DNA of 64,000 bases from Eledone cirrhosa (Eukaryota): the NCBI GenBank assembly GCA_964016885.1, contig CAXHJY010000419.1, forward strand, positions 2,046-66,045, in the 5' to 3' direction. Numbering within the stretch: position 1 is the stretch's first letter; the number at the start of each line of letters is the position of its first letter. Shown piece by piece: positions 58,697 to 60,402 of the stretch. Position numbers and translations under genes: made by a program. The notes under the pieces were generated by a model that was given only the letters and a program-made list of their open reading frames with translations, had not been told where the DNA came from and ran no database searches.

Positions 58697-60402
58697 AAAT
58701 TGAAACAAAATGAAAACGAAATTTCATTTCTCACTCTTAGTATGGCACTTACTTAAATGTAAGTATGCATGTATACGTACATACATATATGTATACAGAC
58801 GTACAGTAGCATGCACATATATATATATATACATATATACATACATATGCATACAGGTACACATACATATATGCACGTATCAGTTTAGCGGCGCTAACGT
58901 CGCTTTGTTCGTTTGTAAACAAACTGAACAGCCTGAATTTATGCCATACGGTGTTAAGGCAACCACGTCACCTTTTTGTTCAACACTGACACAGGAACGA
59001 TGTACTAGTTTCAAGCTTGTTAGCTATCATCAGCACCGTTTACCCATCTGCCAGATAGTTGAACGGTCGAAAGTATATACTTTCCTTATGAAAATTAACG
59101 GCTGAGCAGCCTAATTTGCATATTGAGTGAGTTAAATCGGTCAGGCATACCGAAAACGATAAATTGAAACAAAATGAAAACGAAATTTCATTTCTCACTC
59201 TTAGTATGGCACTTACTTAAATGTAAGTATGCATGTATACGTACATACATATATGTATACAGACGTACAGTAGCATGCACATATATATATATATATACAT
59301 ATATACATACATATGCATACAGGTACACATACATATATGCACGTATCAGTTTAGCGGCGCTAACGTCGCTTTGTTCGTTTGTAAACAAACTGAACAGCCT
59401 GAATTTATGCCATACGGTGTTAAGGCAACCACGTCACCTTTTTGTTCAACACTGACACAGGAACGATGTACTAGTTTCAAGCTTGTTAGCTATCATCAGC
59501 ACCGTTTACCCATCTGCCAGATAGTTGAACGGTCGAAAGTATATACTTTCCTTATGAAAATTAACGGCTGAGCAGCCTAATTTGCATATTGAGTGAGTTA
59601 AATCGGTCAGGCATACCGAAAACGATAAATTGAAACAAAATGAAAACGAAATTTCATTTCTCACTCTTAGTATGGCACTTACTTAAATGTAAGTATGCAT
59701 GTATACGTACATACATATATGTATACAGACGTACAGTAGCATGCACATATATATATATATATATACATATATACATACATATGCATACAGGTACACATAC
59801 ATATATGCACGTATCAGTTTAGCGGCGCTAACGTCGCTTTGTTCGTTTGTAAACAAACTGAACAGCCTGAATTTATGCCATACGGTGTTAAGGCAACCAC
59901 GTCACCTTTTTGTTCAACACTGACACAGGAACGATGTACTAGTTTCAAGCTTGTTAGCTATCATCAGCACCGTTTACCCCATCTGCCAGATAGTTGAACG
60001 GTCGAAAGTATATACTTTCCTTATGAAAATTAACGGCTGAGCAGCCTAATTTGCATATTGAGTGAGTTAAATCGGTCAGGCATACCGAAAACGATAAATT
60101 GAAACAAAATGAAAACGAAATTTCATTTCTCACTCTTAGTATGGCACTTACTTAAATGTAAGTATGCATGTATACGTACATACATATATGTATACAGACG
60201 TACAGTAGCATGCACATATATATATATATATACATATATACATACATATGCATACAGGTACACATACATATATGCACGTATCAGTTTAGCGGCGCTAACG
60301 TCGCTTTGTTCGTTTGTAAACAAACTGAACAGCCTGAATTTATGCCATACGGTGTTAAGGCAACCACGTCACCTTTTTGTTCAACACTGACACAGGAACG
60401 AT
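58697..60402 (-). repeat. Tandem array B: about 3.7 x 464-469 bp units, each full unit with a minus-strand type I hammerhead ribozyme
   Basis: aaattgaaac recurs at 58697, 59161, 59627 and 60096; last unit truncated at 60402. Confidence 0.95.
58996..59040 (-). ncRNA. Type I hammerhead ribozyme, array B (further copies at about 59462-59506 and 59930-59974)
   Basis: Minus strand aacggtg CTGATGA t-agct-aaca-agct-t GAA ACTAGT A catcgtt; predicted cleavage between 59003 and 59002. Confidence 0.88.

Follow-up and report, generated by a model that had tools for sequence, protein, structure and literature searches.

Retrozymes as a class, the tails, inversions and microsatellite targets of Penelope-like elements (PLEs), and the proposal that retrozymes travel as passengers of PLEs are already known. 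For metazoan retrozymes, both self-cleavage and circular RNAs have been demonstrated (PMC7229834), whereas the element considered here, which we term family B, is known from its sequence alone. An axolotl retrozyme hammerhead with a U-U pair at the base of helix II reached 22% cleavage in 1 h in monomeric form and was cut far more efficiently as a dimer (PMC7229834), while eight of nine Xenopus retrozyme dimers tested were without cleavage (bioRxiv 10.64898/2026.07.22.740005). The hammerhead of PLE pseudo-LTRs is of a minimal form, with a short helix I and a long helix II (PMC4209133). As regards the enzyme, an anole PLE has been found in vitro to nick AT-rich DNA and to extend both strands, starting at two internal RNA sites which bound the tail and are used alike on either strand; it has been modelled as a dimer (PMC11167929). 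How retrozymes return into the genome, and how PLEs insert as tandem and inverted copies, are questions stated to be open (PMC7229834, PMC8557442, bioRxiv 10.64898/2026.07.22.740005). In the literature that we searched, subscription journals, Repbase and Dfam aside, no report was found of insertion footprints or of strict end pairing for any retrozyme, and it is this insertion footprint, a clean genomic read-out of the insertion mechanism, that forms the new part of the present analysis.

The window, that is, the whole stretch of 64,000 nt analysed here (Eledone cirrhosa, assembly GCA_964016885.1, contig CAXHJY010000419.1, positions 2,046 to 66,045), carries a tandem array of family B at 58695..60402 on the minus strand, comprising three full units and a 3' partial unit in a single, non-inverted arm. 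The original prediction of a retrozyme-like family is borne out at the level of sequence, where tandem type I hammerheads, the lack of a credible ORF, covarying helices and thousands of dispersed loci agree with the definition of a non-LTR retrozyme. We consider it highly probable that this is a young, high-copy retrozyme inserted in trans by the RT/GIY-YIG protein of a PLE, where it is the insertion footprint that points to this class of enzyme.

The claimed ~466-bp minus-strand hammerhead array is real, since TRF returns a period of 466 with 3.7 copies and a 99% match over 58695-60402, and CUGAUGA occurs at 59967, 59499 and 59033. Its extent, previously given as 58697..60402, is correct in general, but the start has to be moved to 58695, and the partial unit lying there is the 3' end of the array, stopping at position 310. 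With position 1 set at the first base after the predicted cleavage, and all features of the array lying on the minus strand, unit 1 (59937..60402) covers positions 2-466 with one extra G, unit 2 (59469..59936) has 468 nt with one extra TA, unit 3 (59003..59468) is the 466-nt reference monomer, and the partial unit (58695..59002) covers positions 1-310 up to the fixed tailed 3' end of the family. The full units measure 467, 468 and 466 nt as cut and, as had been noticed before, differ solely in the length of a TA tract and in one extra base, a G on the minus strand (C on the plus strand) in the unit nearest 60402; the length variation resides in a long TA-rich hairpin (59233..59348, positions 121-236 of unit 3). 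The joints between units are seamless and there is no LTR pair. The ORFs over the array, which had been dismissed as not credible, are indeed mostly TA-derived, with a frame that shifts with TA length, and the GC content of 58001-60000, flank included, is 0.29. At 466 nt, the unit is longer than the 150-450 bp given for metazoan retrozymes (PMC7229834) and falls within the retrozyme range of 51-972 bp.

Interrupted (TA)n tracts of the same orientation flank the array on its 3' side (58089..58697) and its 5' side (60401..63757), the 5' end of the array being at position 2-4, with (TA)n adjoining 1-3 nt from the point of predicted cleavage. The 3' tract is a target common to a companion array of 311-bp units (family A, 56218..58096, plus strand, six hammerheads), which lies tail to tail with that of family B and which we read as an independent insertion into the shared TA tract. 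Elsewhere, the window contains two homogeneous satellites, one of 27 bp in 317 copies (1-8552) and one of 77 bp in 41 copies (36623-39778).

Each full unit is closed by a hammerhead, and in all three the core and three helices of the canonical type I form are present (59930..59974, 59462..59506 and 58996..59040, with predicted cuts between 59937 and 59936, 59469 and 59468, and 59003 and 59002, respectively). Helix I has 7 bp, including one G-U, and the core is CUGAUGA; helix II consists of U-AGCU/AGCU-U with the loop AACA and a U-U at its base, followed by GAAA; in helix III the palindrome ACUAGU forms 2 bp closed by a UA loop, and GUA serves as the predicted cleavage triplet. In the predicted fold helix I is extended by CUGGCA/UGUCAG and GUUCAAC/GUUGAAC, and round the second hammerhead this extended helix (59444..59530) pairs both ends of a monomer. 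The motif with its context at all three CUGAUGA sites, helix I with its G-U and its extension, and the palindromic helix III had all been described in the original prediction, and all were recovered. Compared with shuffled sequences the unit fold has a z of -8.3, in part owed to the TA-rich hairpin, and the circular fold predicted for unit 3 reaches -152 kcal/mol with 67% of its bases paired. At the gathering score Rfam gave no match on the hammerheads, HH9 appearing weakly at 18.5-18.9 bits against a cut-off of 52; the TA-rich miRNA families that fill the Rfam list at E <= 10 were rejected as composition matches.

The helices, whose lack of covariation would have counted against the original prediction, covary across sister families. 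Among 16 kindred variants chosen by the hammerhead pattern, a choice which favours the result, 85.7% of cells pair and double changes are found in 9 of 14 pairs (42 cells), a score reached by none of 500 shuffles, while slid controls fall to 28-45% paired. Since these sequences are related and pattern-picked, the covariation is to be read as support and not as a probability. An octamer-like sequence, ATGCAAAT, at positions 348-355 (59114-59121, minus strand) is kept in families B and C; it is possibly an internal promoter element, but in the predicted fold it makes up one side of a stem as well. Newt satellite 2 has an snRNA-type promoter. A short hammerhead-like motif of another repeat family, which ends in (TA)n, occurs in the window at 52840-52960 (minus strand) and is probably decayed, related copies with a paired helix II being present at three other loci (L099, L103 and L104).

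The 38-nt ribozyme core is found in 10,264 exact copies in the 3.0-Gb genome against 0 for the reversed control, and a family-neutral hammerhead pattern, in which core, loop and spacing are fixed, in 32,640 copies against 3 in the control, so that the motif cannot be ascribed to chance; a shorter core pattern with the loop AAYA has 11,245 copies genome-wide. The family-neutral pattern yields older B subfamilies, the 311-nt family A and a family C. Family C, also of 466 nt, has 307 of 466 positions in common with B in a global alignment, and its predicted circular fold is almost identical to that of B, including a small hairpin and a three-way junction. Families A and B are unalignable outside the ribozyme (score 16 against 19 +/- 2 for shuffles), yet have equal hammerhead geometry and an equal two-end, TA-targeted, inverted footprint; the earlier description of the two arrays as unrelated thus stands for the sequence outside the ribozyme, but not for geometry and footprint. 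The genomic distribution is that of hundreds of dispersed short arrays with fixed ends, not that of a satellite with few long arrays. Some long arrays of family C may nevertheless have grown locally: one that runs for about 30 units (14 kb) before a short arm in inverted orientation (L193 and L194, contig C1:5738326-5752444) could stem from reverse transcription over a very long distance or from subsequent expansion at the locus, and another (C1:14044535-14050193), in which two helix III variants alternate irregularly, suggests local duplication or a multimer template.

Arrays of family B pass into (TA)n at either of two fixed positions inside the unit, separated by about 60 nt and neither of them at the cleavage site. 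At the tailed end, the transition from position 308-310 to (TA)n is represented by 834 exact junctions against 4,626 read-through sites, and at the tail-less end, at position 245-251, by 894 junctions. In the window array, which is single-armed and tailed, the 'tail' of about 60 nt between the two inferred priming sites (positions 251-310) lies at 58695..58754. Young loci were sampled on one contig, C1, and picked by an exact tailed end (40 of the first 43 tailed ends listed); 39 were resolved, 32 as head-to-head inverted and 7 as single-armed. Second arms end at 242-251 in 29 of the 31 resolved cases, the remaining two (L165 and L182), parsed as ending at 291 and 184 and counted as misses, being perhaps parsing errors, as for both of them the opposite strand has a listed tail-less junction. 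First arms consisting of the tail only (7/39) stop at 246-254, where the second site lies, and the inner joints of the inversions are nearly blunt (-6 to +10 nt). Likewise, the 90 tailed and 100 tail-less ends listed for the first 345 Mb of C1 yield 57 head-to-head pairs of mixed type within 20 kb and no like-ended inverted pair, either tailed/tailed or tail-less/tail-less. Taken together, the strict pairing and the tail-only arms suggest the action of one complex on one RNA.

Both sites coincide with predicted structural features of the RNA. The tail-less ends of other loci fall in or beside the loop of the small hairpin (positions 241-258, 58747..58764 in the window), and the tailed end falls in an unpaired U-rich linker of the predicted three-way junction (positions 269-344, 59125..59200). 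In family C, for which the hairpin and junction are also predicted, the ends are at matching places, and the two-end pattern is common to families A and C. In family A the two ends are about 30-35 nt apart; the array in the window stops at the tail-less site, position ~140, and two other loci (L187 and L195) are inverted, with one arm tailed and one tail-less. The one-end tail, the inverted 5'-truncated copy and the microsatellite target are traits of a PLE passenger. Since both ends of a B array lie within (TA)n, a target-site duplication, which in non-LTR retrozymes exceeds 4 bp where there is one, would be indiscernible there. Repeated telomerase-like synthesis of the patterned TA flanks was dropped, because their interruptions run in the same orientation on both sides of an inverted insertion, as would be expected of a tract already in place.

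The genome contains autonomous elements with RT, CxxxxCxxC and GIY-YIG domains, with ORFs of up to 938 and 1096 aa, which by motif and domain order are candidate members of the Neptune/Nematis type; about six of these families end in (TA)n. The GIY-YIG search returned 10,597 candidates, of which 150 were scored, so PLE families can be missing from this set. Among 64 PLE loci, all seven two-armed autonomous ones in (TA)n have one tailed and one tail-less arm. The suggestion that the unit is a Penelope terminal repeat finds no support in this sample: none of the 64 loci is contiguous with the unit as its terminus, no terminal repeat resembles it, and 8 of the 74 unit-bearing stretches have Penelope protein matches, the nearest 697 bp away, while at three loci (L067, L106 and L107) unit-like sequence lies beyond the PLE's own 3' end. 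Comparing the end region of B with the ends of six PLE families gave no match (best z 1.6), and the tailed end of family A resembles that of one PLE family (L095) with a z of 2.6, the best of 18 and not significant after correction. A 12-nt U-rich word common to B and one PLE tail, and a match with a z of 3.2 under mononucleotide shuffling, were rejected when dinucleotide shuffles gave 1.6 and 1.0. The retrozyme hammerhead itself, with its extended 7-bp helix I, helix II of 4-5 bp and AAYA loop, is not of the minimal PLE form, and the PLE hammerheads in this genome are unlike it in sequence and shape, one PLE family having a U-U at the helix II base. It also counts against a PLE partner that other retroelements, for example the RT-bearing elements of the window, may instead have served; two such RT frames followed by a PHD finger (20591-22390 and 44473-45279, plus strand; Pfam RVT_1 + PHD) probably represent one LINE-like family.

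Several further observations concern the same tracts and elements. Across all fetched loci, more than 40 clusters of sequence ends adjoin (TA)n, indicating that many families target the same tracts and nest side by side; at one locus (L149) a B arm begins 5 TA units past a PLE 3' end. The window includes a Penelope-like protein fragment (11850-12084, minus strand) that is 65% identical to the L106 family. PLE terminal repeats at L093 and at loci of the L043 type (L045, L048 and L054) carry hammerhead-like motifs with UUGA in place of CUGA in the core and with ACCGGU as helix III.

In the mechanism that we propose, the arrays would be transcribed through and their hammerheads would cut slowly, mainly as dimers via the palindromic helix III, giving monomers able to circularise together with some uncut multimers. 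A PLE protein would cut the (TA)n tract on both strands, whereupon one DNA end would prime near position 310 of the unit and its counterpart near 250, internally and away from the cleavage site; each cDNA would span zero to many units, and two would be joined head to head. The first cDNA would at times stall at the second priming site, and loss of one cDNA would leave a single arm, as in the window array. In its specific form, for which we would grant slightly less than an even chance, a dimeric PLE RT primes both cut TA ends at two structure-defined sites on one ribozyme-closed circular RNA and copies round both sides. The anole PLE sites are used alike on both strands, and strict end pairing is therefore not directly predicted by that system. 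Were the specific form true, retrozyme arrays would preserve a direct fossil record of twin-primed rolling-circle reverse transcription, with the enzyme recruited through the fold of the RNA and not through a common sequence.

The nature of the template is the point at which this proposal is most seriously contested, by a reading that keeps the same element and enzyme but has uncut linear multimers from the parent array as the usual template, circles being minor. At three of the 36 loci with both strands and at least three copies of the position (C10, L111 and L151), a variant is present in exactly one unit per arm, which weakens a pure monomer-circle template, and at L111 neighbouring TA-tract types follow in the same order in both arms. 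Furthermore, positions 1-33, immediately inside the cleavage site, account for 15 of 71 5' ends (p = 1e-4), as run-off from cut linear RNA would have it, and uncut RNA is the main in vitro substrate of the anole PLE (PMC11167929). Against this, stalling at helix I fits the 5' ends too, and just 3 of the 71 come to within 5 nt of the cut; the variant at C10, which affects a CpG, may have arisen repeatedly, and all three cases could result from gene conversion between arms or from assembly error. At three other loci (L153, L160 and L173) variants unseen in the other sampled loci are fixed in every unit of both arms, and unusual TA tracts are fixed across up to 11 units. Such locus-wide fixation needs the spread of one unit's change and so favours a monomer circle. 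We would regard a predominantly multimeric template as a realistic prospect that we are nonetheless inclined to doubt, and expect that circle and multimer templates are both used.

It is unlikely that the hammerhead is a dead relic, with the repeat depending for its spread on a SINE-like role as PLE passenger alone. In the predicted monomer folds of B and C the core CUG pairs with helix III (probability 0.97 for the B monomer), an inactive alternative which may keep the monomer quiet and let it cut poorly; a double hammerhead was not favoured over a competing dimer fold by the energy models; and PLE insertion in vitro is independent of cleavage (PMC11167929). The U-U at the base of helix II points in the same direction, and the original prediction had named it as a ground against cleavage. 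This ground is weak, given the cleavage of the axolotl U-U hammerhead (PMC7229834), and in relatives the position is occupied by C-G, G-C or A-U, older B copies and family C having C-G or G-C. A relic is also at odds with the nearly invariant core, with the covariation of helices I and II over families that are ~60-66% alike or unalignable, and with the clustering of 5' ends by the cut site.

That arrays expand at the site of insertion, each starting from one monomer and enlarged by unequal crossing-over, has been argued for vertebrate retrozymes (bioRxiv 10.64898/2026.07.22.740005) and is suggested at some loci by the ~30-unit and alternating-variant arrays of family C, but as a general account it appears very unlikely. 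In 187 segments from 50 loci, units differ by 0.55 per 338 nt within the same arm and by 0.54 between opposite arms, whereas between loci the difference averages 7.1 (median 4.0), from which it follows that arrays arrive ready-made; moreover, both arms exceed one unit in length at 9 of the 32 inverted loci, the unit numbers are not whole, and the 3' end is fixed and internal while the 5' end is scattered. Recent amplification, as originally proposed, accordingly stands for the window's subfamily, but the array itself was most likely inserted ready-made and not grown in place. Most improbable of all is that the unit is the pseudo-LTR of an autonomous PLE and the arrays its truncated copies, for although PLEs are typified by a tail, inversion and TA targeting (PMC8557442), a likeness to PLE terminal repeats is seen in Xenopus retrozymes (bioRxiv 10.64898/2026.07.22.740005) and one PLE family here shares the U-U, this is opposed by the seamless joints between units, the differing PLE hammerheads, the absence of a unit terminus from all 64 PLE loci and the copies lying past PLE 3' ends.

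Insertion in trans by a PLE protein, the reading preferred here, gains its interest from the fact that hundreds of near-identical insertions read out the reaction, with two start sites, one-of-each pairing and the same pattern in native long-ORF PLEs. The footprint with two fixed starts makes the question of how retrozymes spread testable, and a 466-nt RNA with mapped start sites offers a small substrate for testing internal priming, dimer action, and circle versus multimer.

Among the systems described, the metazoan non-LTR retrozymes of coral, mussel and axolotl (Rtz_331/Rtz_353) resemble family B in being AT-rich non-coding tandems with one type I hammerhead per unit, in their short palindromic helix III and thousands of copies, and in combining a highly self-paired predicted circle with the presence of PLEs in the genome; in the axolotl Amex2 hammerhead, too, a U-U stands at the helix II base (PMC7229834). 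In the parts of that account on which we draw, a PLE partner is only suggested, and fixed internal 3' ends, inversions, tails and TA targeting are not mentioned (PMC7229834). These latter features recall the EN+ PLEs (Neptune/Nematis and Naiads), with which B has in common partial tandems, an inverted 5'-truncated copy, a tail that is often confined to one end, a microsatellite target and two-site internal initiation (PMC8557442, PMC11167929, PMC4209133). Unlike them, B has no ORF, a canonical instead of a minimal hammerhead and a tail of ~60 nt in place of 30-40, and it is the terminus of none of the PLEs examined (PMC8557442, PMC11167929, PMC4209133). The vertebrate retrozymes, viewed as non-autonomous PLE derivatives, share with B the co-occurrence with PLEs and the proposed use of their machinery; the case made for them is from co-occurrence and terminal-repeat similarity and favours local amplification (bioRxiv 10.64898/2026.07.22.740005), whereas B is without such similarity and its footprints point to ready-made arrays. 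Finally, the Chlamys elements, such as MRC1, are like B non-coding PLE passengers with multicopy head-to-tail insertions, but mostly share the 3' sequence of their partner and are mostly without hammerheads (PMC8557442). Family B is thus not a PLE terminal repeat in our sample, but works like a non-autonomous PLE.
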